From an uncultured Acidobacteriota bacterium (GTDB lineage Bacteria; Acidobacteriota; UBA6911; RPQK01; JAPXNP01), in contig CAVZRV010000008.1 in the NCBI GenBank assembly GCA_963777605.1, positions 64,001-128,000 of the forward strand: a stretch of DNA of 64,000 nt, read 5' to 3'. The notes beneath the pieces were generated by a model. The model was not told the origin of the DNA. It worked only from the letters and a program-made list of their open reading frames with translations, and made no database searches. The first letter of the stretch is position 1, and every line of letters begins with the position of its first letter. Below, in pieces: positions 3,776 to 61,207 of the stretch. A program made the translations under genes and the position numbers.

Positions 3776-3783
3776 CGATCCCT

Positions 3784-7541: not shown

Positions 7542-7629
7542 TTCGGGTTTCCTTCTTCCGGGCAAACTGGTCCGCGCAGACTCATCTGGAGCGTTCGCAG
7601 TCGCATGAGCGTTTAACCCTGATTGAAGC

Positions 7630-7645
7630 TGCCAGAATTGCGCCA
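7630..7645 (-). promoter_or_regulatory. Possible sigma54 -24/-12 promoter for the KamA-like gene
   Basis: Minus strand TGGCGC-AATTC-TGGCA has correct GG/GC spacing, about 90 bp upstream of the ATG at 7541. Confidence 0.4.
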
Positions 7646-7845
7646 TTCAACCGGTGTTAGACCCGGAGAAGGCATGAATGGCTCGTCTGAGCGGTGGGTG
7701 CCTCGTCGAAGCTACCCGTCGACAGCAACATTCACAGGAACGATTTCTTACTTTTTCTTTTTACCACAGGGGCGGCGGTTTCGGCCACAGAAAATGCTCG
7801 GTCGAGGGCCTCCCTTAGCTGCTGAGCGTCCCGTTTGGCTCTGAT

Positions 7846-8316
7846 ATGATTGCCGGAATGAAGCAATCCTGGCTGGTAAAAAGCGAGCCCTCGGTATACT
7901 CGATCGATGATCTCGAACGGGAAGATCGAACCTACTGGGACGGAATCCGAAATTACCAGGCCCGGAACCTGATGCGGGATGGAATGAAGCAGGGAGACTT
8001 GGTCCTCTTCTACCACAGCAACGCGGACCCAACCGGGGTCGTGGGGGTTGCAGTAGTGGACAAGGAGGCCTATCCGGATTTTACTTCCTGGGATCCCTCC
8101 AGTTCCTACTTCGATGAGAAATCGACCCCTGAGCAGCCGCGCTGGCTGATGGTTGACATTGCCTTCCGTGAAAAGTTCGACCGCATCGTCTCGTTGGAAG
8201 AAATCAAACAGGAACCGGCCCTGCAGGACATGGTCCTGGTGAAGAACAGTCGCCTTTCGGTACAACCGGTCAAGCCGGAGGAGTTCCGGCTGATCTGCGA
8301 AATGTCGCGTCGTTAG
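7846..8316 (+). CDS. EVE domain protein
   Basis: WLVKSEP, WDGIRNYQARN, LFYHS and RLSVQPV motifs; start may be 7858. Confidence 0.92.
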   Translation: MIAGMKQSWLVKSEPSVYSIDDLEREDRTYWDGIRNYQARNLMRDGMKQGDLVLFYHSNADPTGVVGVAVVDKEAYPDFTSWDPSSSYFDEKSTPEQPRWLMVDIAFREKFDRIVSLEEIKQEPALQDMVLVKNSRLSVQPVKPEEFRLICEMSRR

Positions 8317-8337
8317 TCCGAGCATCGGAGGAGAATC

Positions 8338-9885
8338 ATGAACTTGACCGCAGACAGAGAGGAACGAGTTCGAGCACTGCTCAAAAAACTGGAAATTCAG
8401 GACGTCAACAGAGGGGCGTGCACGGGGTTTGATCAGTGGCTGGATGTAAGCGGTGGCGAACTGGTCTCGTACGACCCCACGAATGGAAAGCCCCTGGCCA
8501 GCGTGACCCAGTGCGATGCGGCCTCGTACGACTCGATCATCGACAAGGCTGTCCGGGCATTTCACTCCTGGAAGAACGTTCCCGCGCCCAAAAGAGGCCT
8601 TCTGGTTCGAGACCTTGGAAATGCCCTTCGTGAGGTCCAGGAGCCTCTCGGGGAGTTAATCGCCGTTGAAATGGGCAAGATCAGGGCCGAGGGAGTGGGT
8701 GAAGTTCAGGAGATGATCGATATCTGTGATTTTGCCGTCGGCCTGTCACGCCAGCTGTATGGGCTGACGATGCCGTCGGAACGGGCCGCTCACCGGATGT
8801 TCGAGCAGTGGCACCCTCTGGGTGCGATCGGGATCATTACCGCGTTCAATTTTCCGGCCGCGGTCTGGGCCTGGAACTCTGCGATCGCTGCGGTGTCCGG
8901 AGACACCATGCTGTGGAAGCCCTCGCATTCGACTCCGCTCGTCGCAATTGCCATCCAGAACGTGGCCAACCGGGTTTGCCGGGACCATGGTGTGGACGGC
9001 ATCTTCAACCTGATCGTCGGCAACCGGCATGAGGTGGGCGACAAGATGCTCGGGGACCCCAGAGTCTCGCTGATCAGCTTCACGGGCTCCGTTCGTGTCG
9101 GAAAGCATGTGGCCTCGACCGTCACCGGCCGCCTTGGTCGCACTATTCTCGAGTTGGGGGGGAACAACGCTGTTATCGTCACGCCTCACGCCAGGCTTGA
9201 CCTTGCGTTGCGCGCCGTGCTCTTTGGGGCGGTCGGTACCGCCGGGCAGCGTTGTACGACGACCCGCCGTCTGATCATTCACAAGAGCATTTCCGAAGAA
9301 TTCTGCCGCAAACTGGTCTTCGCCTATCAGCAGTTGACGATCGGGGATCCGGTTGAATCTTCGACCCTGATGGGCCCGCTCGTTCACGAAGGTGCGGTGG
9401 AAGACATGATGGCCGCCCTGGACGCAGTTCGGAAGCAGGGCGGCGAGATTCTCACCGGCGGGAGGAGGCTACCCGAACTCGGAGCCTGTTTCGTTGAACC
9501 GACGATCGTCAGAGTCCCCAGCCAGACACCCATGGTCTGCGAAGAGACCTTTGCCCCAATCCTTTACGTTCTCGAGTACGAAACAATCGAGGAAGCGATC
9601 GCTATCCATAATGGAGTTCCTCAGGGCCTGTCCAGTGCGATATTTACTACCAACCTCCAGGAGTCGGAGCGGTTCCTTTCGCTGGGTGGCTCGGACTGCG
9701 GAATCGCCAACGTCAACCTCGGCACCAGCGGTGCGGAGATCGGTGGAGCGTTCGGAGGCGAAAAGGACACGGGAGGCGGCCGGGAGTCGGGTTCCGACGC
9801 CTGGAAAGCGTACATGCGGCGGCAGACCAACACAGTCAACTGGTCCGACAATCTTCCACTGGCACAGGGGATCAAATTCGGCTAG
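8338..9885 (+). CDS. Aldehyde dehydrogenase family 7 (alpha-aminoadipate semialdehyde / P6C dehydrogenase-like)
   Basis: GEVQEMIDICDFAVGLSRQLYG, LELGGNNA, GTAGQRCT, GGGRESGSDAWKAYMRRQT and LPLAQGIKF. Confidence 0.92.
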   Translation: MNLTADREERVRALLKKLEIQDVNRGACTGFDQWLDVSGGELVSYDPTNGKPLASVTQCDAASYDSIIDKAVRAFHSWKNVPAPKRGLLVRDLGNALREVQEPLGELIAVEMGKIRAEGVGEVQEMIDICDFAVGLSRQLYGLTMPSERAAHRMFEQWHPLGAIGIITAFNFPAAVWAWNSAIAAVSGDTMLWKPSHSTPLVAIAIQNVANRVCRDHGVDGIFNLIVGNRHEVGDKMLGDPRVSLISFTGSVRVGKHVASTVTGRLGRTILELGGNNAVIVTPHARLDLALRAVLFGAVGTAGQRCTTTRRLIIHKSISEEFCRKLVFAYQQLTIGDPVESSTLMGPLVHEGAVEDMMAALDAVRKQGGEILTGGRRLPELGACFVEPTIVRVPSQTPMVCEETFAPILYVLEYETIEEAIAIHNGVPQGLSSAIFTTNLQESERFLSLGGSDCGIANVNLGTSGAEIGGAFGGEKDTGGGRESGSDAWKAYMRRQTNTVNWSDNLPLAQGIKFG

Positions 9886-9889
9886 GGGA

Positions 9890-9953
9890 ACAAGGAGAGG
9901 CAGGATCCTGCCTCTCCTTGTCATCTATTAAAAACCCGAGCTTTTAACTCGGG
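9890..9953. terminator. Perfect 32-bp palindrome plus second hairpin between convergent genes
   Basis: ACAAGGAGAGGCAGGA|TCCTGCCTCTCCTTGT at 9890-9921, then CCCGAG..CTCGGG at 9935-9953. Confidence 0.6.
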
Positions 9954-38939: not shown

Positions 38940-40346
38940 ATGGCCCGAATCCTTGTCGTAGACGACGAACCCCATATGCGGAGGATTCTGCATACGATTC
39001 TGAAGCCTCTCGGCCATGAAGTGACTGAGGCATCTGGAATCAAACCGGCCCAGGAGTTCCTTGAGCAATCGCACTTCGACCTCCTCATCACCGATCAGCG
39101 AATGCCGGACGGAGAAGGACTCGACCTATTGAGCTTCGCGCGGGAACTGGATCCGACGCTGCCGGTCGTCTTCATCACCGCCTTCGCCACTGTAGAACTG
39201 GCGGTGGATGCCATGCGCCTCGGTGCATTCGACGTGATCCCCAAACCCTTCGTCCCTGAAACCGTAGAAGCGGTTACAGCCAGGGCGCTGGAACGAACCC
39301 TGCTGGTCCGGGAAAACGAGGAACTGAAGCGAACGATCGAGACGCTCACATCGGCTGGTCGTTTGCTCGGTGAAAGTCGAGCCATGCGGGAGATCCTTGG
39401 AATGATTGAAAGGGTTGCCCCTACGCCGGCGACCGTCCTGATCACGGGAGAGACAGGAACCGGCAAGGAACTGGTCGCCCGAGCGATCCATGAAAACAGC
39501 CCTCGCGCCAACAAGCCATTCGTCGCGGTGAATTGCGCGGCATTCACCGAGACACTGCTCGAAAGCGAACTTTTCGGCGCCGAGCGGGGAGCCTACACGG
39601 GGGCCGACAGGGCTCGGCGAGGACTTTTCGAGGCCGCCCACACGGGCACGCTCTTCCTGGACGAAGCGGGGGAGATGTCGCTTCCCCTTCAGGCACGGCT
39701 CCTGCGCGTACTGATGAACGGTGAAATCGTTCGGGTTGGATCCACCACCCCGCGTTCGGTTGATGTCCGAATCCTGGCGGCAACTCACCGCAACCTCGAA
39801 AGACGCGTCAGCGAGGGGCTCTTTCGAGAAGATCTTTACTATCGCCTGGCCGTCGTGCCACTCCACATTCCCCCGCTGCGGGAGCGCCGCGAGGACATTC
39901 CCCTGCTGGTCGACCATTTCCTGAAGCAGGTGTCCACCGACCTCAAAATGCCGCTCAAACGGCTCGATCCTGAAGCGCTTCAAAGGCTTTCCAACTACCC
40001 GTTCCCCGGCAACATCCGGGAACTTCGCAATCTCATTGAACGGGGATACATCTTGTCTCGAGGTGACGAGATCCGGGCCGAAGAACTGCCTCTCGGCCAG
40101 GGAGGCACCGGGTCCTTCCGATCCCCCCACCCGGATACTCCCATAACACCGGAAGCCCTCCGACAGCAGTGGATGGACAGTCTTCCCGAGCAACTGAACC
40201 TCAGGTCTGTCCTCGAGGAAAACGAACGGGACCTCATCATTCGAGCCCTGAAGCTGTCCGATGATGTTCAAGCCGAAGCCGCCCGCAAGCTGGAAATCTC
40301 CCGCAGCGATCTTTCCTACAAGCTCCGGAAACACAAGAGCATTTGA
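38940..40346 (+). CDS. Sigma54-dependent response regulator (NtrC family)
   Basis: Receiver domain (VVDDE, TDQRMP), GETGTGKE, ESELFG..GAYTGA, FREDLYYRL and a C-terminal Fis HTH. Confidence 0.95.
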   Translation: MARILVVDDEPHMRRILHTILKPLGHEVTEASGIKPAQEFLEQSHFDLLITDQRMPDGEGLDLLSFARELDPTLPVVFITAFATVELAVDAMRLGAFDVIPKPFVPETVEAVTARALERTLLVRENEELKRTIETLTSAGRLLGESRAMREILGMIERVAPTPATVLITGETGTGKELVARAIHENSPRANKPFVAVNCAAFTETLLESELFGAERGAYTGADRARRGLFEAAHTGTLFLDEAGEMSLPLQARLLRVLMNGEIVRVGSTTPRSVDVRILAATHRNLERRVSEGLFREDLYYRLAVVPLHIPPLRERREDIPLLVDHFLKQVSTDLKMPLKRLDPEALQRLSNYPFPGNIRELRNLIERGYILSRGDEIRAEELPLGQGGTGSFRSPHPDTPITPEALRQQWMDSLPEQLNLRSVLEENERDLIIRALKLSDDVQAEAARKLEISRSDLSYKLRKHKSI

Positions 40347-47543: not shown

Positions 47544-48626
47544 TCAAATTTTGAACGTCGAACGGAAGTTTGAGTAAATTTTCCCCGGTTGCATGGCATG
47601 TCCCCAGCTCAGCGTGTTGGCATCGGGGATGTCGGTGCGGGCCCCCGGGATTTTCCCGGCCTGGATCAGCGATCCGAACTGGAAGTAGACGGCATCCATA
47701 TCCGAATGCCAGCCCGGAAAATGGCCGAATCCGCCGTCATCGTTGCGGCAACCCACTACCCATTCCGCGGCCTTGTCCATGGCCGTGCGGCAGGCCGGGG
47801 CGTCACCGCCCAACTGATGAAGAATGAAGAGGGCGTCAAAGCAGGCGTGGACGTCCCAGTCCGGCTCCTTGATATTCCACCCTCCTTCGTTGGTCTGGTC
47901 TGCGAGGGTCCGTGTCACCATGGCATCGGCACGTGGGGTGGGTTCCCCGATCATGCGGAAGAAATGCGCCATGTGAAAGGTCGCTGCGACATGGTCCTGA
48001 AGGTAGCCATCCGCACCTTGCGAAGCAATCATGAAATCTTTGACGGCCTGCTTGTAGCCCGGCGGGAACTCGGTCCCGAGCGCAGCATAGAAGAGCGGAA
48101 AGAAACTGGTGGTATAGAGTGGCAACTGGGCGAACCTGTCGTTCTCGAAAAACGGGTCGAGGACAGCTGTCGGATCATAATCGGGAAGAGCGCCGAGAGC
48201 TCGAAGGGCCACAACCCCCTGCGTGGTGTTGTAAAGAACCGCCAACTCGCTCTCGGGATCGAACTCTCCCGCGAGGTTCCGGAACCGGCCATCCGGCTGT
48301 TGGTGCATCGCCACGAAGGCGATGCTGTTGGCCAGACTCGGCAATTCCCATCCCATCGTCTTGGCCAGGACCGCGGCATAGGTTACGGCGGCCAGGTCGC
48401 TTGCATTGGTATCGGAATTGCCCGGATAGTTGAGGTCGGGAGAGGCTGAATAACCTCCGTCGTCCCGACGGCATTGCTCGATAAACTTCCGGCATGCGTC
48501 GGAAATCGCTTCGAAGTCCACCCCCGGCTCCGGCGAGGCTTCCTGCCGCCTGCCGAAGGCGAGGGCGCCGGCCAGCGGGCCTGCCGAAAGCACTTTCAAC
48601 ACCGTTCGTCGATCCAGTGGCTTCAT
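47544..48626 (-). CDS. Tat-exported prenyltransferase/squalene oxidase repeat protein
   Basis: DRRTVLK twin-Arg motif; repeated QxxDGG(F/Y/W)-type motifs (RDDGGY, QQPDGRF, QTNEGGW, RNDDGGFG). Confidence 0.8.
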   Translation of the reverse strand: MKPLDRRTVLKVLSAGPLAGALAFGRRQEASPEPGVDFEAISDACRKFIEQCRRDDGGYSASPDLNYPGNSDTNASDLAAVTYAAVLAKTMGWELPSLANSIAFVAMHQQPDGRFRNLAGEFDPESELAVLYNTTQGVVALRALGALPDYDPTAVLDPFFENDRFAQLPLYTTSFFPLFYAALGTEFPPGYKQAVKDFMIASQGADGYLQDHVAATFHMAHFFRMIGEPTPRADAMVTRTLADQTNEGGWNIKEPDWDVHACFDALFILHQLGGDAPACRTAMDKAAEWVVGCRNDDGGFGHFPGWHSDMDAVYFQFGSLIQAGKIPGARTDIPDANTLSWGHAMQPGKIYSNFRSTFKI

Positions 48627-48671: not shown

Positions 48672-50006
48672 TCAGTCCAGCCCGTGCGGAGACTCCTCTT
48701 GCAGATCTCCCGGAACGCTGGCCGAGCCAGTCGTCAGCGAGCGGTGGGCCAGGTGGCCGATCAACTCCGCATGTTCCATCGCCTCGTGGATGACTCCCGT
48801 CCGTCCGGAACGGATAGATTCAAAAAAGCCGGTCAAGTGAAGCCGGGTCCCATCCGCCTCAACCTTGATCTCCTCGACGGGCGCCTGGTTCGCCTCAACA
48901 CCGGGTGAGATATCCTCCGTTTCCCCTCCGAGCTCTTTCGCGTATGCGGACCGGTAACGGTTCGGCCAGGCCAGGGCCGGTTCCACATACCGGCCGGCGC
49001 GGAACCGTCTAACCGACGCCGGAGAGAACTCGATCCTGCCCTCGGAGCCCTGCAGGGTCACCAGGAACCGGGGAGGGCCTTCCTGCTCGACAGCCGATAG
49101 GTAGATAGCGGGACCCTCGGCGAACTCAACGCGGGAAAAAACACGATCGGGAAGGTCCCAACGCGAGTCCTGCCGCTCGATGCCCCCGAGACTGGTCACT
49201 TTTACCGGCTTTGCGAGGGGGCGAACCGTGTGGATGGCGGCAAGGAGATGCTGAAAATGACGCATAGTGATCCCGGCCGAGTAGTCGGAGTATCCTCCCC
49301 ACGTGAAGAAGCGATGGGCATCGAACTCTCGCTCGGGACCTTCGTTGAGAAACCAGTCCCAGTTGCGCTTCTGAAGCGTTGCGCCGGGCGGGATCGGAGA
49401 AAAACCGCCCCAGTAGCCGCTTGCCTCTCCTTCGATGGAAAGCAGCTCTCCGATTTTGTCGTTGGCCAGCCACTGGGCGGCCGTGCGGGCCGTCGCGCTG
49501 CTCAACTGTTGCGCCCCCCAATACAGTGACGACGTCGGGCGATCAGTGGATTTGGTCTTGATGTTTGCCCATTCCTCCCACCGGTAGGTTCCCGGAGGCT
49601 CGACGTAAACCCGCTTCCCGCGGTGGAGTGCTTCTTCGACGACCTGGGCCGACAGGTGATCAGGAAGAGCCACGATCACTCCGTCGAGGTGCTCGGCCAG
49701 GAGCACTTTGATCCACATCGGAGTGAAGAACGATCGTCTCATCCCGAGTTCGCGCAGGCGATCGAAGTGGGGAGTCCAGAGGTCACCGCAGGAGACCACG
49801 TTGATGCCCGGATCATCTGCGACGAGACGCAGCAACTGAAATCCCCGGTTTCCCATCCCGATGAAGCCGATCCCCAGGGGGGCCTCACTTCCCGACTGGG
49901 AGAACTGTCCGATCAGCGGGGCGGTTATGAAGGGAGCAACGGCCGTATTCTGGAGAAAGCGACGTCGAGTGGGGCGATCGAATTGGGACAGCGGGCGACT
50001 CTTCAC
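48672..50006 (-). CDS. Tat-exported Gfo/Idh/MocA-like protein (divergent)
   Basis: TRRRFL motif, GFIGMGNRG and ALPDHL, but EPP replaces EKP. Confidence 0.78.
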   Translation of the reverse strand: MKSRPLSQFDRPTRRRFLQNTAVAPFITAPLIGQFSQSGSEAPLGIGFIGMGNRGFQLLRLVADDPGINVVSCGDLWTPHFDRLRELGMRRSFFTPMWIKVLLAEHLDGVIVALPDHLSAQVVEEALHRGKRVYVEPPGTYRWEEWANIKTKSTDRPTSSLYWGAQQLSSATARTAAQWLANDKIGELLSIEGEASGYWGGFSPIPPGATLQKRNWDWFLNEGPEREFDAHRFFTWGGYSDYSAGITMRHFQHLLAAIHTVRPLAKPVKVTSLGGIERQDSRWDLPDRVFSRVEFAEGPAIYLSAVEQEGPPRFLVTLQGSEGRIEFSPASVRRFRAGRYVEPALAWPNRYRSAYAKELGGETEDISPGVEANQAPVEEIKVEADGTRLHLTGFFESIRSGRTGVIHEAMEHAELIGHLAHRSLTTGSASVPGDLQEESPHGLD

Positions 50007-50053
50007 GGGAAGAATATAGCCGCAGGAACCCGCACTGGCAACCAGGGTGCTTC

Positions 50054-51859
50054 TTAGTCCTCACCGATCACCAGTTTCAGCTGGCGGATCCGGTTATTGA
50101 CCTCTGTAAGGCTCAACTCCCGATAGCGAGGCGGGAGGAATCGGTTGTCCGTGCACTCCTTGACAGCAAGAAGATCCATCAACTCCAGGCGATCCACGTG
50201 CGCCGACGGGCGAAAGTCGGCAATCACCTCGGAAATGATTTCCGGGAGCGACCGGGGAGCTGCATCCTCCGCCTGGGTCTCGAATCGCCGCAGGCTCCGG
50301 ATCAGAATCCCCTCCATTTCGTTCCCACCGATCCGGTTGTCGTCGGGCAGCCGGGGCAACTCCTCCGCCGATATCGTCAGCCCGACTTTCCGGGCCATGG
50401 CGTAGAAGAGGGCGTGACGGCTTTCCTCGTCCTGAGGGGGAAACAGGGGAATGTGCACATCGAGCCTTCCCTGCCGCTTGAGATCGACTTCGAGCAGGTC
50501 GGGGCGGCTCGTGGCGAAGATCCAGACGATCTTACCCCGATTCCGGGTGTCGCTCATTTCGCGGGCCAGCATGCCGTACACGCGGCCGCTGAGGCCCGAG
50601 TCTCCCGATCCACTGTCGCGCCTTCCGGTCATCTGGTCGGCTTCGTCAACGAACACGATGACCTGTCCCAAGGCGTGCAAAATGTTGAACACCCGCTCCA
50701 GGTTGCCCTCGGTTGCACCTACCCACTTGTCCCGGAAATTCTTGATCTCGACGACCGGTATGCCGACCTCTCCGGCGAGGCATTCAACCAGGTAGGTCTT
50801 GCCCGTCCCGATGCGGCCGCACAACAGGTACCCCATTGGAATCGCCCGAAGCCGGCCGCGTCTCAGGAGGGCTGCGTCCTCTTTCAGCCAGCGCTTGGCC
50901 TCATTGTGCCCCGCCACATCATCGAGCCGGCGGGTCGTTTCGATGAACTCGATTCGACCGAAAGCCTCCTTCTCAATCGTCTCCTTCTTCACCCTGGTCA
51001 GATAGTCCATGGTGATCCGGAGATTGCCCACCCTGGCGCGCAACAGGAGTCCGCGGATATTGACCCGCGAGAGGCCGACAAGTTTCTCGGCCAGCTGATC
51101 GCGACCGACCTCGCAGTTCTCTTCGAAGGACTCATCCTGGGGAACTGCCTCGGCAACAAACTCGGCGATCTCGGCCGCGTTGGGAAGGTCGATCTTGATC
51201 TTCGCGGAATACGGGTTCTCTACCAGGTTTTGATTCAGGTCCGAGAGGTTCTCGGCGACGAGAACGGTTGCCACCGACGCCCCGGAAATCGCAGGGTCAC
51301 TCGACCAGTCGAGCAACTGGATCAGGTTCTGGCTCAACTGTCCGGAGAGATGGACCGGCTCACCCCGGGGGGCAATGAACTCCACGTAGTCGATTACAAT
51401 AGCGACCTTGAGGGGGTCGGGCACTCGCACTCCGCCGCCGTCAGTCCGGGTTCTGTGCTGGCTCCCCCGAAGGAACCGGGTAATCAGCTCGAGGGCCCGC
51501 TGCGGGTCCCTCGGAAGAAGATTGCTCAGGTCGAGTGCCGACATCCGGTCCGGTCCGGTGTCGGGCAACTCTGCCCAGGCGGTTCCCCGAAACGAGTCGA
51601 ATGACTTGAGAAACTGGTGGAACAGGTCGCCACCCTTGGGCACCCGGATCCCCCGCCCGCGGTCGTAGTCGATGATCACGTCGAATGGATCGAACATGAC
51701 CTGGGTCAGGAACTGCGTCAGGGAGGTGTACTGCATCCTGCCTTCAGACGCCGGAGCGCCCACCAGGTCGAACACGTCGCCGTAAAGAATGAACTGGCTG
51801 TTCGATCCGGACCGGTAGAGCTGACGCATCTCCTCGGCCCAGGCGGGAAGGTCGGCCAT
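50054..51859 (-). CDS. AAA+ ATPase (degenerate N-terminal AAA-like domain plus active classical AAA domain)
   Basis: Walker A GRIGTGKT, pore loop KWVG, Walker B IVFVDEAD, ATSRPDLL and Arg finger KRQGRLD. Confidence 0.9.
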   Translation of the reverse strand: MADLPAWAEEMRQLYRSGSNSQFILYGDVFDLVGAPASEGRMQYTSLTQFLTQVMFDPFDVIIDYDRGRGIRVPKGGDLFHQFLKSFDSFRGTAWAELPDTGPDRMSALDLSNLLPRDPQRALELITRFLRGSQHRTRTDGGGVRVPDPLKVAIVIDYVEFIAPRGEPVHLSGQLSQNLIQLLDWSSDPAISGASVATVLVAENLSDLNQNLVENPYSAKIKIDLPNAAEIAEFVAEAVPQDESFEENCEVGRDQLAEKLVGLSRVNIRGLLLRARVGNLRITMDYLTRVKKETIEKEAFGRIEFIETTRRLDDVAGHNEAKRWLKEDAALLRRGRLRAIPMGYLLCGRIGTGKTYLVECLAGEVGIPVVEIKNFRDKWVGATEGNLERVFNILHALGQVIVFVDEADQMTGRRDSGSGDSGLSGRVYGMLAREMSDTRNRGKIVWIFATSRPDLLEVDLKRQGRLDVHIPLFPPQDEESRHALFYAMARKVGLTISAEELPRLPDDNRIGGNEMEGILIRSLRRFETQAEDAAPRSLPEIISEVIADFRPSAHVDRLELMDLLAVKECTDNRFLPPRYRELSLTEVNNRIRQLKLVIGED

Positions 51860-51862
51860 GGT

Positions 51863-52741
51863 CTACTCCTTCTCCATCTCAGGTGGCAAATCCGGGAGTT
51901 CCGCAACTGAGCCGATCGTCTCGTCTCCGCTCAGCGAACTGAAAAACTCGGAGTGATCATCCATCCAACGGTTGGTTTCACTCATGGTGGACGTGACCGC
52001 ATCGAGCCGGCTCGTCATCAATTCCGGATTTCCACTCACTGCAGTCTCCTCCCGTATGAGCTCAACCTGTTTCTCGATCCGTTCCAACTCGGCGTCGATG
52101 ACCCGCAGGCTTTCCTGGGCACGCTCCAGGTTTTCCAGCCGTCGCCGGTTGATTTCCAGCGTACCCTGCAGCGACCGCTTCAGCGCAGTCTCTTCCGGCA
52201 TCGCGGCAATCCGCTTCTCGACCGTGGCGGCCTCTTTCTTCAACTCGGCGGCGTCGGCCGTGGGAAGGTTCGCCTCGATCAGTTCCTTAGAGCCGAGAAG
52301 TCGCAGGAAGATCGCCAGCAACTGGTTGAGGTTTCGGGTGCGCAGGTCCCGGAACTGACCAAGGCTGTCGGAATCAAGGCTCTCCGAATCCCCCAGGATT
52401 CGCCGGCACTCGGTCAGAAGTGCCCGGTATCGTTCCCGGTTGGAAATCGTCAACCGGGCAACGGCCCGCTCGACTTTTTCTTTCCAGGAGACCTGGGCCT
52501 CCATGAGCCGACTCGCCTCGACCAGATTCTGGAACCGCCTGCTGCTGGCCAGTCCGAACAGCAGCGAGATCTCAAACGCCGCTCCGAGCAGCCAGAAGCC
52601 GGGATTTGCCAGGCCCGCGACTACGAATGCACCCAAGCCCATCTTGTTGATCGGCATCGAACCCAACAGCGGCAATGCGGACTTCCAGTGAAAAGCCTCG
52701 CCCACGTAATCCCAGAAACTGAGGTTATCGGGTGGTTTCAT
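51863..52741 (-). CDS. Hypothetical 2-TM coiled-coil protein
   Basis: N-terminal hydrophobic hairpin and long heptad-rich helical region; ATGA overlap with the ABC ATPase. Confidence 0.8.
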   Translation of the reverse strand: MKPPDNLSFWDYVGEAFHWKSALPLLGSMPINKMGLGAFVVAGLANPGFWLLGAAFEISLLFGLASSRRFQNLVEASRLMEAQVSWKEKVERAVARLTISNRERYRALLTECRRILGDSESLDSDSLGQFRDLRTRNLNQLLAIFLRLLGSKELIEANLPTADAAELKKEAATVEKRIAAMPEETALKRSLQGTLEINRRRLENLERAQESLRVIDAELERIEKQVELIREETAVSGNPELMTSRLDAVTSTMSETNRWMDDHSEFFSSLSGDETIGSVAELPDLPPEMEKE

Positions 52742-53607
52742 TCCCTGCCTGTTTCAATACTCCGAAACGCTCGTGTTACCGAGGCCACCGCCTCCTTGAA
52801 TGCCGTTTCTTCCTGCACGAGCATCGGATCACTGTTGCGGGTCGGAGGGATTACATCATCGAAGACCCGGGCAATGCGGCCTGGCCCGTGATTCATCAAC
52901 CAGACCCGGTCGCCGAGGTAGACGGCCTCGGCAATCGAATGGGTGACCAGGAAAACTGTCGCCTCGACTTCGTGCCAGAGGTTGGTGATCAAGCGCTGCA
53001 TGTCGTAACGGGTGGGTTCGTCCAGCGCCGAGAAGGGCTCGTCCATGAGAATGATGTGGGGCTTCAGTGCCAGGGTCCGAGCCAGGGCGACCCGCTGCTG
53101 CTGTCCTCCCGACAACTGGTGTGGATACTTCTGCTCATGGCCGGTCAAACCAACCCGCTCGATCCACTGCATGGCCCGGTCCTTGATTTCCGACCGGCTC
53201 AGTCCCATTTCCAAGCGATTGAGTTCCAGGCCGAAAGAAACATTGCGCAGTACCGTCAAGTGGGGGAATGAACTGTACTTTTGGAATACCATTCCCCGGT
53301 CCCGGCCCGGTCCGGTCACGATTCTTCCGCGTACTCGCACCTCACCCAGTGTCGGAGGGTAAACATCGGGGAAGCCCTGAATAAGGTTCAAGATGGTCGA
53401 CTTCCCGCAGCCGGAAGGACCGATGATCGAGATGAACTCGCCCGTTCCCGGTTTGTCTTCGACCAGAAAGGAGACTCCTTTGATCGCAGTGAAGGCATTC
53501 GGCGTTCCGGCATCAAAGGTCTTTTCCACGTCGCGGAATTCCACAATCGGTGGAGCCCCGTTTCCGGACGAGACAGAGTCCTTGCTCTTACTCCCCTGAA
53601 ATCTCAT
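52738..53607 (-). CDS. ABC transporter ATP-binding protein (NitT/TauT type)
   Basis: GPSGCGKST, LSGGQQQR, LMDEPFSALD and VTHS motifs; ATGA overlap with the permease. Confidence 0.93.
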   Translation of the reverse strand: MRFQGSKSKDSVSSGNGAPPIVEFRDVEKTFDAGTPNAFTAIKGVSFLVEDKPGTGEFISIIGPSGCGKSTILNLIQGFPDVYPPTLGEVRVRGRIVTGPGRDRGMVFQKYSSFPHLTVLRNVSFGLELNRLEMGLSRSEIKDRAMQWIERVGLTGHEQKYPHQLSGGQQQRVALARTLALKPHIILMDEPFSALDEPTRYDMQRLITNLWHEVEATVFLVTHSIAEAVYLGDRVWLMNHGPGRIARVFDDVIPPTRNSDPMLVQEETAFKEAVASVTRAFRSIETGRE

Positions 53608-54461
53608 GAATGCTGCTCCCGGTACGGGAACAGGTACCGCCCCAGCACGGCCCAGATCCGATCCGTAACAAAGGCCAGGGCGACGATCACCAGGAGGACC
53701 AGGTAGATGTGTTCCCGGGGGCCGCGCCGCTGCGAAATGATGATGATCCCGCCCAGTCCTTTGCCGATATCGACCATTTCGGCCAGGATGATGTAGCTCC
53801 ACCCAATTCCGAACCCGAGGCGCATGGCACTGTAGATGTCGACCCAGGCCACTCCGAGAAGGACCTTGAGGACCACCTGCAACTTGCTTGCCCCGAGAGT
53901 GAATGCGGTTTTGAGATAAATCTCGTCGACGCCGTCCACGGCCTGGACGATCAGGGGCAAGAGGTAGATGACAAAGGCAAGGGCAAGGAATGCCACCTTC
54001 TGGGTTTCCCCGGTCCCGAACAAGCTCAGCGTCAGGGGGACCAGGGCAGGAATCGGCAGGTAGGCACCGAACACCGAAAGGGGAGTGAAGAGGGCTTTGA
54101 CCTTTCCGAAAGCCCCCATCGCAACACCCAGCGGAAAGGCGATCAGGGCCCCGACCGCAAAACCGGTCACCACCCGCCCCAGAGAAATCACGGCATTTCT
54201 GGTCAGGGCCCGGTCGAACCAGAGGCTACCGAACGAATTGGCCACCTCCATCGGGTTTGGCAGGATCGCGGGAGTGATGATCCGATCCTCGGGGCGGGCC
54301 CCGCTGGTAATGAACCACCAGACTCCCACCAGGAGGATGATGGGGACCAGCCCGAGAACCCACCTTTGCCACCCGGGAAGATCTTCCCGAATCTTCAAAA
54401 GATCAGACAACCAGTTCCGGGCAGCGGGCGTTTCCAATTGTGCACTGGAGTCTGCGTTCAC
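53604..54461 (-). CDS. ABC transporter permease (SsuC/TauC type)
   Basis: LPNP, SLGRV, FGTGE, TAFTLGAS and W.YIILAEM motifs. Confidence 0.9.
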   Translation of the reverse strand: MNADSSAQLETPAARNWLSDLLKIREDLPGWQRWVLGLVPIILLVGVWWFITSGARPEDRIITPAILPNPMEVANSFGSLWFDRALTRNAVISLGRVVTGFAVGALIAFPLGVAMGAFGKVKALFTPLSVFGAYLPIPALVPLTLSLFGTGETQKVAFLALAFVIYLLPLIVQAVDGVDEIYLKTAFTLGASKLQVVLKVLLGVAWVDIYSAMRLGFGIGWSYIILAEMVDIGKGLGGIIIISQRRGPREHIYLVLLVIVALAFVTDRIWAVLGRYLFPYREQHS

Positions 54462-54516
54462 CAGCCTTCCTCCCTCTGCTCCAATCCTTGCTCCCGGTAC
54501 TCCCAGTCAAGAGTCT

Positions 54517-56244
54517 TCATTGCTGCTCCGGAGGATAGACCGATACCTCTACCCTGCGGTTGAGCGCGTGATTGTCGGGATCTTCCATGTCTGCTGGTTC
54601 ATCCCAACCTTTCCCTTCCACAATGAACTTGTTCGGATCAAATTTGAACTTCTTTACCAGTGCCGCCTTTACGGCATCGGCACGATCGAGGGAGAGCTTT
54701 CGCACGTCCTCGTCCCTGACGCCTTTCCCGCGCATCGAGGCATCGGTGTGCCCTACAACCGCAATGGTTGCCCTTTCGTATTGCCCCGCCAACCGTCCCA
54801 CCTTCTCGATAGTGGCGTCCGCGGTCGGGTCGTAGAGGGTGTTGGCGATAGGCCGGCCCAGGTCGTCGTGGGTCGGCTCATAGATGTTGGCCGAGTTCGG
54901 GTAGAAGTTGATTCGGATGGTCTGCGTCAGGATCGGGGCTTCCGCCTGAACTCTGGAATAGGACGTCGGGACGAACTGGGTCCGGTACTCATCCTTCTGT
55001 GACGCAAACGCTCCTTCCTTCTCCAGTTGCTGGATTACGCTGAAATCCATCACCTCGTCAAAGCGGACCGGGGTGCCGACCATGCCCAACTCCCGGTAAA
55101 CAAAGGTGATGTTTTTCCAGGTGCGTTCAAAGTTCGCCGCCTCGTTCTGATTCAGGAAGAAGGACTTGTTCTCGGCAAAGTTGGTTGAGTGGGCGTCCGC
55201 GGCCATCCCCTGGACCTCATCAACCGGCATGCCATAACCTTCGGCCATCCACTGGAACGCCTTCGCCTTGAAGGTGTCGTTCTTGAGTTCGTCCATTGCC
55301 TTGAACACGCCGGCAACCAGTCCCTTGATGATCTCCGGATGGTCCTTGGCAAAGTCGGCTCGGGCCGCCCATACGTCGGCAATCAGCTTGTTGGCCTCCG
55401 ACGTCGTGGTCAGGATCCGGGTCCCCGGAACCTTCTCCGGAATGTTGTAGATGTCCGGGGCCCAGGAGACACAGGCATCGATCGATTTGTCGGCGACGAA
55501 GGCGGCAGCCGCCTCAAAGGCCGTTGCCGTGTAGCGATGGTTCACTTCGCTCGGCTGGATACCCGCGTTCAGAAGCAGATTGTTGATGAAGTACTGGGAC
55601 GGGCTGTTCTGGGCGTAGACGACGGTTTTGCCCTTCAAGTCACGAGCCGTTGCGACCGCTCCGCGCACGACGATCCCGTCTCCGCCATTCGACCAGTCGA
55701 CCTGCTGAAAGATCCGGGGCGCCGTCCGGGAATCCCGCATCAGTTCAGGGGCGAACATGACCATCATGTCCAGAGTTCCCCAGAGGATGTGACTCTCACC
55801 CGAAACAAAAGCGTCCCTCGCCACGACCGGGTCGTCGATCAGCTTCAGATTGACCTTGAAACCGTATTCCTTGGCAAAAATGCTGTCGGCGTTCGGGCTA
55901 AACCCGTGGTTGGCCGCCACGATCGGGAGCCAGCCGATCCAGACGTTGATCGGAAACTCAACGATCTTCTCGTTGGCATCCCACTTGTAATTGCTGACCC
56001 CTTGAACGGGGGGCAGCTTCTCTGCCGGCCGATAGGTGTACTCGCTGACCGTGGTGATTCCCACGGTATCGGGAGCTTCGTACTTTCCCATCTGGTTGAA
56101 CTTCGCGAGATCGACATCGCCGGGTCCTGCACCTCCCGGCGCGATGAAGTCCCAGAAGTAATAACCGGCCCCTGAAAAAAGGACGATCACGAACAGAATG
56201 ATGACTATTTTGCCGAGCAGGGTCGGCCCTACTTTCTCCGCCAT
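54517..56244 (-). CDS. Membrane-anchored ABC substrate-binding protein fused to a C-terminal OmpA-like domain
   Basis: N-terminal TM helix; WIGW, DWSNGGDGIV, LKGK and LIAD (type II SBP); GHTD..LSLDRA..NRRVE (OmpA_C). Confidence 0.88.
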   Translation of the reverse strand: MAEKVGPTLLGKIVIILFVIVLFSGAGYYFWDFIAPGGAGPGDVDLAKFNQMGKYEAPDTVGITTVSEYTYRPAEKLPPVQGVSNYKWDANEKIVEFPINVWIGWLPIVAANHGFSPNADSIFAKEYGFKVNLKLIDDPVVARDAFVSGESHILWGTLDMMVMFAPELMRDSRTAPRIFQQVDWSNGGDGIVVRGAVATARDLKGKTVVYAQNSPSQYFINNLLLNAGIQPSEVNHRYTATAFEAAAAFVADKSIDACVSWAPDIYNIPEKVPGTRILTTTSEANKLIADVWAARADFAKDHPEIIKGLVAGVFKAMDELKNDTFKAKAFQWMAEGYGMPVDEVQGMAADAHSTNFAENKSFFLNQNEAANFERTWKNITFVYRELGMVGTPVRFDEVMDFSVIQQLEKEGAFASQKDEYRTQFVPTSYSRVQAEAPILTQTIRINFYPNSANIYEPTHDDLGRPIANTLYDPTADATIEKVGRLAGQYERATIAVVGHTDASMRGKGVRDEDVRKLSLDRADAVKAALVKKFKFDPNKFIVEGKGWDEPADMEDPDNHALNRRVEVSVYPPEQQ

Positions 56245-56328
56245 GGTCCTACTCCTTTGTGACGTTCTCAACTGCGGCGAATCGCAATTTCCTGGCTGCT
56301 TCCACGATAGGCTCCAACTCCAAAGAGC

Positions 56329-57093
56329 CTAGCTCTCGGGCGTCTTAAGACCCATCTCCCGAACGGGAGGCTCGGCAGCGGACTCAGATTCCTGAGGTGG
56401 TGCCTCCGTCGGGCCAAGGTCGAGCCCGTAGGCAGACGCAAACTCGGCCAGGGCCTGGTCGGCCATCGCCTCCTGCTCCGCCTCCTTCAGCTGCACCTCG
56501 CTCATATCAATGGAGGAAGAGGCGACCCGGGCCCGCCCGGCAGCCTTGTCTCTGCGCTCCGTGAGGTATTCCTCGACGCGTGAAATGGTGTCGCCGGTGC
56601 CGCCGATCGAACTGATCATGCCCTGGGCCATTTCCTGAAGTTCGGCCTGGGCCTCCATCAGCTCGGTCTCCGAGATCATCCGCTTCAGGGATTCGATCTT
56701 CGCCCGGGCCTCGGTAACCGCTACTTCCCGCGTCTTCACCAGTTGCTGGTAGGTCTGCTCCTGGGCCTCCAACTGCTGCCGGTTTTCCTCGAGCTGCTCC
56801 TTGACCGTTCGCAACTGGAGCGCGTACTGCCCCGCCGCCGTGCGGTTGCCCGCCTTCAGGTGTGCAGCCGCCTTTCCGGCCAACTCCCGTTCCTGTGTTT
56901 CGAGGTTCTTGACCTGGCGCATCAAGCGCTCGATGAACCCGGCGTGGTTTGCCAGGTTGTCGTTGAACCGGGCAATCTGCCCCCGCAGGTTCTCCTTCTC
57001 CGCTTCGATCAATGCCTGCGGGTTGGCGCGTTCGATGCCCGAAATGAAAAGGCTGAGAAAGCCTTTGAACAGGTTACTGACTCGTCTCCACAT
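56329..57093 (-). CDS. pspA: PspA/IM30 family protein
   Basis: Amphipathic N-terminus MWRRVSNLFKGFL, IERANPQALIE, long coiled coil and acidic tail. Confidence 0.82.
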   Translation of the reverse strand: MWRRVSNLFKGFLSLFISGIERANPQALIEAEKENLRGQIARFNDNLANHAGFIERLMRQVKNLETQERELAGKAAAHLKAGNRTAAGQYALQLRTVKEQLEENRQQLEAQEQTYQQLVKTREVAVTEARAKIESLKRMISETELMEAQAELQEMAQGMISSIGGTGDTISRVEEYLTERRDKAAGRARVASSSIDMSEVQLKEAEQEAMADQALAEFASAYGLDLGPTEAPPQESESAAEPPVREMGLKTPES

Positions 57094-57474
57094 GCCCCCT
57101 CCTTCAGCCTGAGTCCAGACAGACTTCGGTCACACTCGTTCGTCGTAGAGCATGATCTTCCTTCCGGGGTTATCGCTCATGCTCGCCGTTGCTCGAAGGC
57201 GAATCTGGTTCAGACCGGCGCAAGCCCCTGAATCTGCGGAAGAACATATCATCGTTGCCCGAAAAAAAGATACTGGTGGCGGCGGAGTTTTATTCAAGAT
57301 TGTTCCTCGCCATGCTCTGGAAACCGATCAAGGCGGACAGGCCGGGTTAGTTGACACAATCCGCCACCTGCAGCCCGATTAGTGGCACAATTCAGTCTGC
57401 TTCCATCGGACGGAGAGCGACGCCGGGCAAAGTGAGGGTGGCCGGCTGATGGATTGAAGCGGAGGCCTGATGCC

Positions 57475-58428
57475 ATGAGCGAAACCATCGTCTTCCTGAC
57501 TGATCACGGTTACCTGGTGGTGTTTCTCTGGGTTCTTGCCGAACAACTCGGCCTTCCTCTCCCGTCCTCGGTCGTCCTGCTGGTGGCCGGGGCGGCCGCC
57601 GCATTTGGACAACTCTCGCTCGGAACCGTGGTACTGGTGGCCCTGGTTGCCTCCACGATCAGTGACGTCATCTGGTACGAAATCGGCAGGAGACGGGGGA
57701 TGGCGGTCCTGGGACTGCTTTGCAGGATCTCTCTGGAACCGGACTCCTGTGTGCGCCGTACAGAAGAGCGGTTTGCCCGTCACGGAGTCCGCTCCCTCCT
57801 CATTGCCAAGTTTGTGCCCGGCCTCAACACTGCGGCGCCGCCACTGGCCGGCATGTTCCAGATGGGTTTCTGGCGATTTCTACTCTTCGACGTTCTCGGC
57901 GGCCTTTTCTGGATCGGGACCTCCACCATTCTGGGCTACCTCTTCTCCCGCCAACTGGAGGACCTGGTCGGATGGGCGCGCCAGTTCGGGCTCGGAGTAG
58001 GGATCTTGTTGGGGCTTTGCGCGCTCTTGTACGTCGGATGGAAATTCATGCAGCGTCAGCGTTTCATTCGTGAGATCAGCGTTTCGGCGATTGCTCCGGA
58101 TGAACTCAAGCAAATGCTCGACTCCGGCGAGTCTCCGTTGATCGTCGATCTCCGCCACGGCGTTGATATTGCCGCCAACCCCGTTCGACTCCCCGGAGCA
58201 CTGCAAATGTCCCCCTCGGCGATTCGGGATGGGAAGACCCGCCTTCCAGGCGATCGTGAAATCGTCCTCTACTGCACCTGACCGAACGAGGCCTCCAGCG
58301 CCCGGGTGGCGCTGCAACTGAAGCGGCTCGGAATCGAGCGCGTGCGCCCGCTGCGGGGTGGTCTGAACTCCTGGCGGGAACTGGGTTACCCACTGGAAAG
58401 TCAGGTTGAGGGGCACTTCAACCTGTAG
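57475..58428 (+). CDS. DedA (VTT)-rhodanese fusion, probable selenoprotein (Sec at TGA 58279-58281)
   Basis: EQLGLPLP and AKFVPG (DedA); IVDLR..LPGA..IVLYCT-TGA-PNEASSARVA..VRPLRGGLNSW continues in frame to TAG at 58428. Confidence 0.85.
58282..58314 (+). promoter_or_regulatory. Candidate bacterial SECIS element
   Basis: CAGCGCC-CGGGT-GGCGCTG hairpin with its G-rich loop about 21 nt 3' of the in-frame UGA. Confidence 0.65.
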
Positions 58429-59607: not shown

Positions 59608-60981
59608 CTACACTTCTTCGGGCACCACGTAAGGTGGTCGGTAGCGTCGCTTCAGGAATCCGTTTGCTTCGTCGTCATTGACGAACCGCTCGTTGTGGTC
59701 GTCGAAAACAACCGTCCGTCCGAGCCGGTACGAAATGTTGCCGAGGTGGCACAGGGCCGTGGACATGAACCCTTCCTGGATGTCGGCATGGAGGTCCTGC
59801 CACCGGCGTGACCGGACGCAGTCGATGAAGTTCTGAAAGTGCCGCTGCACCGAATCTTCCCGGACCCAGGGTTCCGACTGGAAGGAGCGACCGGCCGCCT
59901 CCTTGGCGCCCTCGTAGTCCATCTGGGTCCAGTTGATGCTGAAGCCGGGCTTGCCTTCCCGCCCCAGAAACGTCTTGAACTCCGAGCCGTGGAGCATGCC
60001 CCAGCCCTCGGTGCCGAAAAAGAAGTTGCCTATTTTCATCCCTTCCTCGGCTCCCGTGTACCAACCTCTGACTTCGAAATGGAGGATGGTCCCGTCCGGG
60101 TACTGGAACGTCGTGTACTGGGTATTGGGGGTCTCCTGGTCGGTTGCGCCCGGTGTCTCGTGGAGCCCGCCAACTCCGTGAATAACCCGGGGATGCTCCC
60201 GCTTTCCCATGCCCCAGCGCATTACATCCATCTGATGAATCCCCTGGTTTCCCATGTCGGTGTCACCGAAATCCCACACCCAGTGCCAATTGTAATGTAG
60301 CCGGTTTTCGTTGTACGGACGCCATTCGGCCGGTCCCAGCCAGCGGTCGTAGTGCAGTCCGGCCGGCACCGGACCCTCCTTCCCCTTCCCGATCGGGTCG
60401 CGCGGCTTGTAGCAGAGCGCCTTTGCCGCGTAGAGCTCTCCGAGCCCACCATCGCGCATGAATTCGACCGCGCGCTGGGCCACCAGGTCACTTCGGCTCT
60501 GGGTTCCCGCGGCAACCACCCGGTCGTACTTGCGTGCCGCCTCGATGGCTTTTCGTCCCTCCTGGATGTTGTGACAGGTCGGCTTCTCACAGTAGACATC
60601 CTTGCCGGCCTGGCAACCCCAGATCGTCATCAGGGCGTGCCAGTGGTCGGGTGTAGCGATGGAGATGGCGTCTACTTCCTTGTCATCCAGGACTCTCCGG
60701 AGATCGGTTTCGGTCTTTGGGTTCCCTCCGTTCTGGGCCTTCATTCTGGAGAGGTGGTCGCCGAACAGGCGCTCGTCTGCGTCTACCACGTATGCTACAC
60801 GGACGTTCCGGATTTTCTGATAGGCCTTGTAGTGATCGGCACCCCGGCTTCGGATGCCGACGATGGCGACGTTGATCGTTTCGTTCGGGCTTTGCGCCCC
60901 GTAGCTGGTCCGGGCAACTGCGGCCGAAGCGACCGTGGCAGTCACGGCGGAACTTTTCTGGATGAATTGGCGACGGTTCAT
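59608..60981 (-). CDS. Tat-exported Gfo/Idh/MocA oxidoreductase
   Basis: MNRRQF motif, ATPDHWH, YCEKP, GTQSRS and NQGIHQMD; AAGGGAGG RBS. Confidence 0.92.
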   Translation of the reverse strand: MNRRQFIQKSSAVTATVASAAVARTSYGAQSPNETINVAIVGIRSRGADHYKAYQKIRNVRVAYVVDADERLFGDHLSRMKAQNGGNPKTETDLRRVLDDKEVDAISIATPDHWHALMTIWGCQAGKDVYCEKPTCHNIQEGRKAIEAARKYDRVVAAGTQSRSDLVAQRAVEFMRDGGLGELYAAKALCYKPRDPIGKGKEGPVPAGLHYDRWLGPAEWRPYNENRLHYNWHWVWDFGDTDMGNQGIHQMDVMRWGMGKREHPRVIHGVGGLHETPGATDQETPNTQYTTFQYPDGTILHFEVRGWYTGAEEGMKIGNFFFGTEGWGMLHGSEFKTFLGREGKPGFSINWTQMDYEGAKEAAGRSFQSEPWVREDSVQRHFQNFIDCVRSRRWQDLHADIQEGFMSTALCHLGNISYRLGRTVVFDDHNERFVNDDEANGFLKRRYRPPYVVPEEV

Positions 60982-61207
60982 GTGAAATCCTCCCTTGAAG
61001 GCCACGAGCCGGATGACTGCAGAAGCGGATCCGGAGGATCACCCGGAATCGGGTCCGGCCCGAGACTTTATCCCCCCATCAGAAGGTGTCAACCGGCTTG
61101 TCTGGGCAGCATCGGCCGCCTGCAAAGCGGCAATAATCTCCTGCAAATTTGTTTGGGAGCCCGCAATTGACAACCGGGGGGAGTGAATCAAAAATCGAAG
61201 GATGTGT

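Follow-up and report, generated by a model that had tools for sequence, protein, structure and literature searches.

The window analysed here is a 64,000-nt stretch of contig CAVZRV010000008.1 from the genome of an uncultured Acidobacteriota bacterium (GCA_963777605.1), and all coordinates of the locus given below are positions within this stretch. Direct reading of its open reading frames (ORFs) revealed six consecutive, co-directional genes on the minus strand between positions 50054 and 57093, encoding a PspA protein, a solute-binding protein (SBP) carrying an OmpA-like domain (SBP-OmpA), the permease and the ATPase of an ATP-binding cassette (ABC) importer, a helical protein and a predicted tandem AAA ATPase. 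Five of these six ORFs were assigned by Pfam:

56329–57093, minus strand: pspA, encoding a divergent PspA/IM30 protein of 254 amino acids (aa; ESCRT-III superfamily, PF04012)
54517–56271 (probable start ATG 56244), minus strand: SBP-OmpA gene, with PF00691 and an NMT1-type SBP region (Pfam)
53604–54461, minus strand: ABC importer permease gene (BPD_transp_1, E 6e-13, Pfam)
52738–53607, minus strand: ABC importer ATPase gene (ABC_tran, E 2e-28, Pfam)
51863–52741, minus strand: gene of the helical protein, 292 aa, no Pfam family above cut-off
50054–51859, minus strand: gene of the predicted tandem AAA ATPase, 601 aa, with PF00004 at residues 345–471

At 53604–53607 the start ATG of the ABC ATPase gene lies within the stop of the permease gene in an ATGA overlap, a second ATGA overlap at 52738–52741 joins the ABC ATPase stop to the helical-protein start, and the junction between the helical-protein and AAA genes reads TAG-acc-ATG, a gap of 3 bp. 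Reading the coordinates and junctions from the sequence thus bore out the initial annotation of this DNA, which had described six co-directional genes with these overlaps and this gap. Its statement that no pspB, pspC or pspF is nearby also held: PspB (PF06667) was not found in the genome (96.7% complete), the single genome match to the PspC domain (PF04024) is on a different contig from the cluster, and the nearest sigma-54-activator domain (PF00158, one of 38 matches in the genome) is at 39363–39863, about 10 kb from the cluster.

The AAA matched PF00004 at residues 345–471 with an E-value of 9e-26, and this second AAA domain (D2) contains a Walker A motif (GRIGTGKT, 348–355), a Walker B pair (D405-E406) and an aromatic pore loop (K378-W-V-G381). 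Residues G348, G351-T-G-K354, D405-E406, G381, R452, R462 and R465 are invariant across 57 AAA sequences, and W379 of the pore loop is invariant in an 8-row AAA alignment, which shows the D2 motifs in full. D2 carries the hallmarks of a classical-clade AAA unfoldase, with Walker A and B, aromatic pore loop 1 and arginine fingers in the second region of homology (SRH). The first domain (D1, approximately residues 5–295), by comparison, is degenerate: a Walker A lysine is missing from all 57 sequences, and the N-terminal half has neither GKT nor a conserved acidic Walker B, the consensus at that place being F-V-L-H-G-N-x-x-D-L-V. Within D1, Y65-D66-R67-G68 and E214-N215-P216 are invariant in the 8-row alignment.

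In an AlphaFold2 (AF2) model of the AAA (predicted local distance difference test, pLDDT, 71), residues 5–295 superpose on D1 of p97 (9mpu_A; Z 13.0, root-mean-square deviation 3.5, 200 residues) and residues 5–468 on D1–D2 of p97, NSF and Cdc48 entries, with Z of about 13 over 340–370 residues. In these superpositions the chain begins at D1, leaving no room for an MIT or other N-terminal adaptor domain. Sequence and model together indicate that the protein is a tandem AAA whose D1 is dead and whose D2 is intact. Its profile found VAT, Afg2 and the D2 domain of p97 as best solved matches, and in NCBIfam the scores ran from Cdc48 (78 bits) over FtsH (72) and PAN (57) down to CdvC (45), all far under their cut-offs. 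With 78 bits against a cut-off of 802.65 for TIGR01243, and 45.4 bits against 650 for the CdvC model NF041006, the protein falls outside both the Cdc48/p97/VAT and the Vps4/CdvC families. The parallel with Vps4 drawn in the initial annotation therefore has to be changed, the enzyme being a tandem AAA with a dead D1 and no MIT domain. A hydrophobicity scan detected no hydrophobic segment in the AAA, and Pfam no protease domain. Open frames of 1202, 988 and 957 codons around the AAA in three genomes were considered as gene fusions and rejected, their upstream parts being out-of-frame readings of neighbouring genes in GC-rich DNA. Matches to IetA, JetC and LmuB in PADLOC reflect generic AAA or coiled-coil similarity, and a defence system was likewise rejected.

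The cluster PspA belongs to the PspA family, matching PF04012 over residues 2–220 of 254 with 38.6 bits (cut-off 33.9, E 1e-9), and its 57-row profile matches solved Vipp1/PspA chains end to end (positions 1–211, E 3e-9). It is the sole PF04012 match in the window's genome; in the set of 41 genomes made up of 40 relatives and G000, the Pfam model matches in 20. Cluster-linked PspAs score 32–42 bits against PF04012, compared with 134–149 bits for the canonical PspAs of six relatives without the full cluster, which places the cluster PspA on a divergent family branch of its own. In AAA-linked PspAs the tail consists of an amphipathic stretch ending in G-L, a variable linker and then K-x-[ML]-G-P; among such tails, 60 of 61 contain the pattern [KRQ]x[MLIV]G, 57 of them with GP. 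A similar ending, L-K-K-K-M-G-I, which resembles K-x-M-G-P, is carried by five of the six canonical PspAs of relatives without the cluster (L102, L104–L107). Several relatives also have a second, short PspA-like protein of about 195–200 aa (L108–L113), which matches PF04012 only from position 1 to 130–147 and has a conserved E-E-E-I-E-L-E-W end; the [KRQ]x[MLIV]G motif is present in none of these six.

The protein encoded between the ABC ATPase and the AAA is all-helical in its AF2 model (pLDDT 75, predicted template-modelling score 0.67), with a short amphipathic helix at the N-terminus, followed by a hydrophobic hairpin (about residues 33–66) and some 200 residues of long helices. On the Kyte-Doolittle scale, averaged over 19 residues, the hairpin of the window's copy peaks at 1.58, just under the usual threshold of 1.6, which 49 of 58 family members reach. 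Membrane anchoring is thus probable from the sequence, and the two-transmembrane label that the protein had been given applies to most of the family, the window's own copy falling marginally short of it. No Pfam, NCBIfam or PADLOC family covers the protein, and in Pfam scans of the 58 members no family was common to more than 12, those that appeared being coiled-coil noise at E≥0.02. The family is nonetheless sizeable in a profile search of 1.84 billion proteins, with 2210 representatives at E≤0.001, 1488 at 1e-10 and 597 at 1e-30; among the matches listed, the best 150 of the 2210, all had E≤5e-60, a range that puts distant relatives such as Rv2743c beyond reach.

We compared the helical protein with the ESCRT-III superfamily in several ways. 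An hhalign comparison with the cluster PspA gave a probability of 0.2% with 8 rows and 0.55% with 58 against 57 rows. Foldseek found nothing in the PDB at E≤0.001, the best hit being the APPL1 BAR domain (E 0.04, TM 0.15), and a wide VIA-align search gave a best Z of 8.3 to an F-BAR domain, which is noise level for helical proteins, with no ESCRT-III chain among the 50 matches listed. Profile searches of the PDB returned nothing relevant and no ESCRT-III chain. An ESCRT-III/Snf7 relationship of the helical protein is thus not detectable in the sequence and fold comparisons run. In a language-model look-up, the nearest named cluster was the Rv2743c (PspM) family (0.87, 184 of 256 features), which we treat as a lead only. 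Rv2743c (PF25587) is not among the Pfam families listed at E≤10 for the 58 members, and kinship with PspM, which would be new if it held, is given low weight here.

In SBP-OmpA, the OmpA domain (PF00691) occupies residues 481–567 with 42.5 bits against a cut-off of 27.2 (E 8e-11), which predicts peptidoglycan binding; it carries G-H-T-D and N-R-R-V-E stretches, which are typical of such domains. Residues 110–342 match NMT1 (E 6e-7), Phosphonate-bd and NMT1_2 in Pfam, and SsuA_fam and a putative urea SBP in NCBIfam, the latter two both under their cut-offs. The best solved relatives are TauA (6ssy, E 3e-10) and SsuA for the SBP part and Acinetobacter baumannii Omp38 (3td3) for the OmpA domain. 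A single strong hydrophobic segment lies near the N-terminus (residues 14–32), and orthologues align from residues 6–11, making ATG 56244 the likelier start. The permease has multiple hydrophobic segments and is SaoP/TauC-like under equivalog cut-offs in NCBIfam, where the ABC ATPase finds PhnT2, TauB, NtrCD and SaoA as best matches, all under their cut-offs. Throughout, the transporter parts match taurine, sulfonate, nitrate, urea-like and SaoP/SaoA models, and in every case the score is far under the cut-off. With an SBP, BPD_transp_1 and ABC_tran encoded together, the locus has the composition of a NitT/TauT-type importer.

We then examined the conservation of the locus in 40 related genomes, one of which, the unpublished genome G018, was counted as negative. 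A full-length AAA match was present in eight: three at 70–75% identity, four at 41–43% and one, G029, broken by a TGA. In seven of the eight, tblastn recovered all six genes in the same order, down to 40% identity for the AAA and 23–27% for PspA, while the genes flanking the window's cluster had no counterpart in any of the eight related loci. The exception (L020, G029:C9, about 3001–4627) is the TGA-broken AAA alone, with the other five genes not nearby and a canonical PspA elsewhere, and is probably a decaying orphan. A separate search for SBP-OmpA (E≤1e-10) picked out exactly the seven relatives that have the full cluster; the other 33 gave no match.

Next, a pattern scan over one genome per prokaryotic species yielded 421 loci with relatives of the AAA. 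The gene order around the best 80 of these, assigned by thresholded tblastn, was as follows:

PspA, SBP-OmpA, permease, ABC ATPase, helical protein, AAA (canonical order): 44 of 80 loci
all six genes reordered (PspA, AAA, SBP-OmpA, permease, ABC ATPase, helical protein; or permease, ABC ATPase, helical protein, AAA, PspA, SBP-OmpA): 3 of 80 loci
rearranged layout cut by a contig end (L099): 1 of 80 loci
PspA and AAA pair alone: 14 of 80 loci
PspA, helical protein, AAA: 3 of 80 loci
cut upstream by a contig end, compatible with the canonical order: 7 of 80 loci
no usable flank: 4 of 80 loci
10 kb of upstream flank (plus 10 kb downstream in three), PspA not found: 4 of 80 loci

With seven of eight relatives and 44 of 80 loci sharing it, the six-gene arrangement is far beyond chance. 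Of 69 informative loci, 65 have PspA beside the AAA; the two were kept together through every rearrangement among the 80, and they form the invariant core of the operon. Around this core the other genes are arranged in a hierarchy: among the 80 loci the helical protein can be present where the transporter is missing, every transporter is accompanied by the helical protein, the helical-protein gene adjoins the ABC ATPase gene wherever both are present, and in rearranged loci the transporter block and the helical protein travel together. Helical protein and AAA without PspA were seen at a single locus (L043). Since 14 loci have PspA and AAA without the helical protein, the latter cannot be an obligatory recruiter of the AAA, a role the initial annotation had contemplated for it as a coiled-coil protein. 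The record titles of the loci name Acidobacteriota (several classes), Gemmatimonadota, Planctomycetota, Verrucomicrobiota and Armatimonadota, as well as Eisenbacteria, Fibrobacter, Myxococcales, Desulfuromonadales and some ‘Proteobacteria’ bins, so that the conserved six-gene synteny postulated from the window alone extends over several phyla. Two loci carry additional DNA between the helical-protein and AAA genes: at an acidobacterial locus (L041), a co-directional gene for a Ser/Thr protein kinase with TPR repeats (7143–9905 of that locus, plus strand; Pkinase, E 2e-39), and at L038 about 2 kb of unassigned DNA.

We also sampled 301 genomes evenly from the window's phylum and searched them at E≤1e-50. 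The AAA was found in 49 genomes and SBP-OmpA in 20, with 18 of the 20 SBP-OmpA carriers among the AAA carriers. A nineteenth, G114, carries the complete cluster, in which a contig end truncates the AAA after about 50 residues, so that 19 of 20 carriers hold the AAA. Taken with its absence from the 33 relatives lacking the cluster, this agrees, for the searched genomes, with the earlier view that the ABC module is no stand-alone importer of nutrients.

To relate the two core proteins to each other, we turned to complex prediction, using the full AAA as a monomer, PspA residues 185–254 and two custom 57-row alignments. The three runs scored 0.43, 0.46 and 0.46 (median 0.46), compared with 0.01 for the highest-scoring of three controls; at least 55% of contacts are shared between the runs, and the partner pLDDT, nowhere lower than 45, falls short of 50 in one run or more. 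In the calibration, whose counts hold roughly for this kind of input, 116 of the 157 solved complexes attained the mark, as did 2 of 215 mismatched pairs, and scores of 0.60 or lower account for 18 of the 157 solved complexes and for both passing mismatches. The prediction thus lends weak support to a contact between the PspA tail and the AAA. Combined with the strong genomic prior, this weak pass nudges the odds of PspA-AAA binding upwards and does not establish it; the earlier proposal that the AAA recycles PspA polymers gains this much from the prediction, and in its remaining substance is still inferential.

PspA and Vipp1 belong to the ESCRT-III superfamily, and Vps4 is the classical AAA+ ATPase that takes ESCRT-III polymers apart. 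Against this background, we propose that the locus is a self-contained module for envelope stress and membrane remodelling, built on a dedicated PspA-AAA pair with a helical-protein coupler and a wall-pinned importer, and we put the probability of this reading at about one half. In such a module, the divergent PspA would polymerise on the cytoplasmic face of the inner membrane. The AAA would be a hexameric tandem unfoldase in which the D2 ring alone is active, with an aromatic pore loop, and it would engage and thread PspA subunits, spending ATP to disassemble, recycle or reshape the polymer. A Vps4-like job would thus be done by a non-orthologous, Cdc48-like enzyme. The helical protein, with its predicted membrane hairpin and cytoplasmic domain, would probably act as a membrane receptor or coupler. 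The importer, of the NitT/TauT class, would have its SBP anchored in the membrane and pinned to peptidoglycan through the OmpA-like domain, and would probably tie the PspA cycle to a solute in the periplasm or to the condition of the wall, possibly by physical coupling.

Several observations weigh against this proposal. The step at its centre, AAA-driven disassembly of PspA polymers, is suggested by analogy with Vps4, and in comparisons of the model the AAA shows neither an MIT domain nor any other N-domain recognisable as a recruiter of substrates. A complex prediction that passes at the score level reached here is false in the majority of cases, except where the prior is already good. The C-terminal motif of PspA was considered as an AAA-specific ‘MIM’ and rejected: with five of six canonical PspAs outside the cluster carrying a similar motif, it is a feature of the family and not a mark of partnership with the AAA or of dedicated recruitment. 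Four AAA loci have no nearby PspA by tblastn, with the neighbours checked by Pfam. In G236 (L114, G236:C11, 5226–8805) the order is permease, ABC ATPase, a shortened helical-protein gene and SBP-OmpA, with no AAA or PspA within 19 kb; this locus looks like a deletion derivative of a rearranged, L047-type layout, and it is the single case found of a transporter surviving without the PspA-AAA pair. G282 has its AAA on a separate contig from the other five genes (L116, L117). Finally, no equivalog cut-off is reached by the transporter parts, and hence no substrate can be assigned to the transporter. As a separate observation, fragments of a second AAA copy (query residues 44–334, in pieces) are found in G282 just upstream of its AAA.

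Among the alternatives, the one that fares best is a co-regulated stress regulon without a physical machine, which we regard as rather unlikely, though as the strongest competitor. Under this explanation, the ABC transporter would import a compatible solute or an organosulfur or nitrogen compound under envelope or osmotic stress, the PspA-AAA pair would maintain the membrane separately, and the genes would share an operon for co-expression. The ordinary, NitT/TauT-type nature of the transporter components fits such an arrangement, as do the 14 loci with the PspA-AAA pair alone and the three that add only the helical protein, the G236 transporter that stands without the pair, and the ProX-type SBP in an archaeal ESCRT locus in the available text of Makarova et al. 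(PMC11188069), which shows a repeated but loose association. What speaks against it is the tightness of the linkage: SBP-OmpA occurs away from the AAA in none of 33 relatives and in one of 20 carriers of the phylum sample, translational coupling through the ATGA overlaps and the 3-bp gap ties together the permease, ATPase, helical-protein and AAA genes, and the transporter block shifts together with the helical protein in rearranged loci.

Two further explanations are both improbable, to an equal degree. The AAA might be a quality-control extractase for membrane proteins, acting in the manner of FtsH or Msp1 on the helical protein or the transporter while PspA merely seals the membrane; the D2 domain is about equally FtsH-like and Cdc48-like (72 and 78 bits) and the helical-protein gene lies directly upstream of the AAA gene across the 3-bp gap, but 14 loci have the AAA and PspA with no membrane protein of the set, the helical protein accompanies the AAA without PspA only in L043, and the AAA has neither a hydrophobic segment in the hydrophobicity scan nor a protease domain in Pfam. 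Alternatively, following the logic of PspF and PspA though not their homology, the AAA might be a regulator or holdase that keeps PspA unassembled or delivers it to the membrane without processive unfolding, for which the dead D1, several of whose residues are invariant in the 8-row alignment, could be a binding platform and to which the weak predicted contact with a monomeric AAA would be suited, but D2 retains every hallmark of a threading motor, the aromatic pore loop included.

Extended beyond this locus, the proposal of a PspA-AAA remodelling module leads to a broader suggestion, which we advance tentatively and consider distinctly less probable than the local one. Bacteria of at least half a dozen phyla would possess a working, non-orthologous counterpart of ESCRT-III/Vps4, in which a Cdc48-like AAA with a dead D1 threads PspA, a PspM-like hairpin protein serves as receptor, and a peptidoglycan-pinned importer reports on solute or wall status. 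If this were true, ATP-driven ESCRT-III dynamics would not be limited to the archaea and the eukaryotes, and the tandem AAA would be similar to the Cdc48-like form taken as the ancestor of Vps4. The operon family offers a direct test of how bacterial PspA/Vipp1 polymers are taken apart; the PspA-AAA pair is obligate-looking (65 of 69 informative loci), and its minimal two-gene form suits reconstitution. Through the wall-tethered importer, the uptake of solutes may in addition be connected with the remodelling of the membrane.

The cluster is bordered by two short intergenic segments:

57094–57453: intergenic, flanked by pspA and a divergent VTT/DedA-family gene, presumed promoter region
50007–50053, minus strand: 47-bp gap 3' of the AAA stop codon, with a terminator-like hairpin and a promoter-like site

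In the first segment, a GGAGG-type ribosome-binding site precedes the pspA ATG, no sigma-70-like site was called between 57094 and 57453, and just one short block is shared with the closest orthologous locus. The site within 50007–50053 is the only promoter-like site in the scanned region, where 1.4 would be expected by chance, and is thus weak evidence; this gap is likely to be the 3' end of the operon. Among public sequencing runs, no RNA run was listed for this DNA, and two DNA runs had small shares of 0.09 and 0.07. The divergent gene at 57454–58281 (plus strand) encodes a VTT/DedA-family membrane protein (PF09335, E 2e-15). DedA proteins are tied to membrane homeostasis; the adjacency of this gene to pspA is not kept in the eight related loci. 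Three minus-strand genes nearby, at 47544–48626, 48672–50006 and 59608–61005, encode products whose N-termini resemble twin-arginine signal peptides. One of the three products is a prenyltransferase or terpene-cyclase-like alpha-alpha toroid protein; that of 48672–50006 is a Gfo/Idh/MocA-type oxidoreductase by Pfam, and that of 59608–61005 resembles the same type by the look of its sequence, without a domain scan.

The type of operon studied here is known from published gene neighbourhoods, and the locus in the window is a real, strongly conserved example of it. As the initial annotation had suspected of comparative surveys, the available text of Ravi et al. 2024 (PMC11237479) describes this neighbourhood, and it proposes ATP-dependent membrane remodelling linked to solute transport. 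Their operon type, with PspA, an AAA+ protein whose N-terminal copy is inactive, an ABC ATPase, a permease and SBP-OmpA encoded co-directionally, is what we find here, and the same role was reached independently from neighbourhoods. Given that the idea is already in print there, the value of the present analysis lies in a quantified and dissected example and not in discovery; relative to the text of that paper available to us, the counts, the modular hierarchy and the co-occurrence among relatives are additions. The same text speaks of ‘Snf7 homologs with a TM segment’, whereas the hairpin protein here has no ESCRT-III signal, a comparison made by description only, and it reports no PspM homologues outside Actinobacteria. 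In the sections of Popp et al. 2022 (PMC9239133) available, the operon is not mentioned, and the literature searched yielded no experimental study of this operon type. According to the accessible parts of Makarova et al. 2024 (PMC11188069), systems of vps4 with ESCRT-III are limited to the archaea and the eukaryotes, Vps4 derived from a Cdc48-like ancestor via loss of one ATPase domain, and a ProX-type SBP occurs in an archaeal ESCRT locus. A 2025 review (PMC7619361) states, in the part at hand, that a Vps4-like ATPase appears to be absent in bacteria.

Set beside these systems, the locus shares with classical Psp operons (Escherichia coli PspFABC, Mycobacterium tuberculosis ClgR-PspA-PspM-PspN and Bacillus subtilis LiaIH) a PspA effector encoded alongside a small membrane partner. 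It lies outside the PspF-PspABC type, with PspB not found in the genome and neither PspC nor PspF next to the cluster, and its membrane partner belongs to an unnamed family. With Cdc48/p97/VAT and NSF, the AAA has in common the tandem D1–D2 fold, with D2 as the best profile match; unlike them, it has no N-terminal double-psi-barrel or other N domain, and its D1 is devoid of nucleotide-binding motifs. The functional parallel in our proposal, ESCRT-III/Vps4 (CdvB/CdvC), likewise places a polymer former of the ESCRT-III superfamily beside a classical-clade AAA with an aromatic pore loop. There, however, the AAA has an MIT domain and one AAA domain and the polymer former is of the Snf7 type, whereas here the AAA has two AAA domains and no MIT domain, and the polymer former is of the PspA type.

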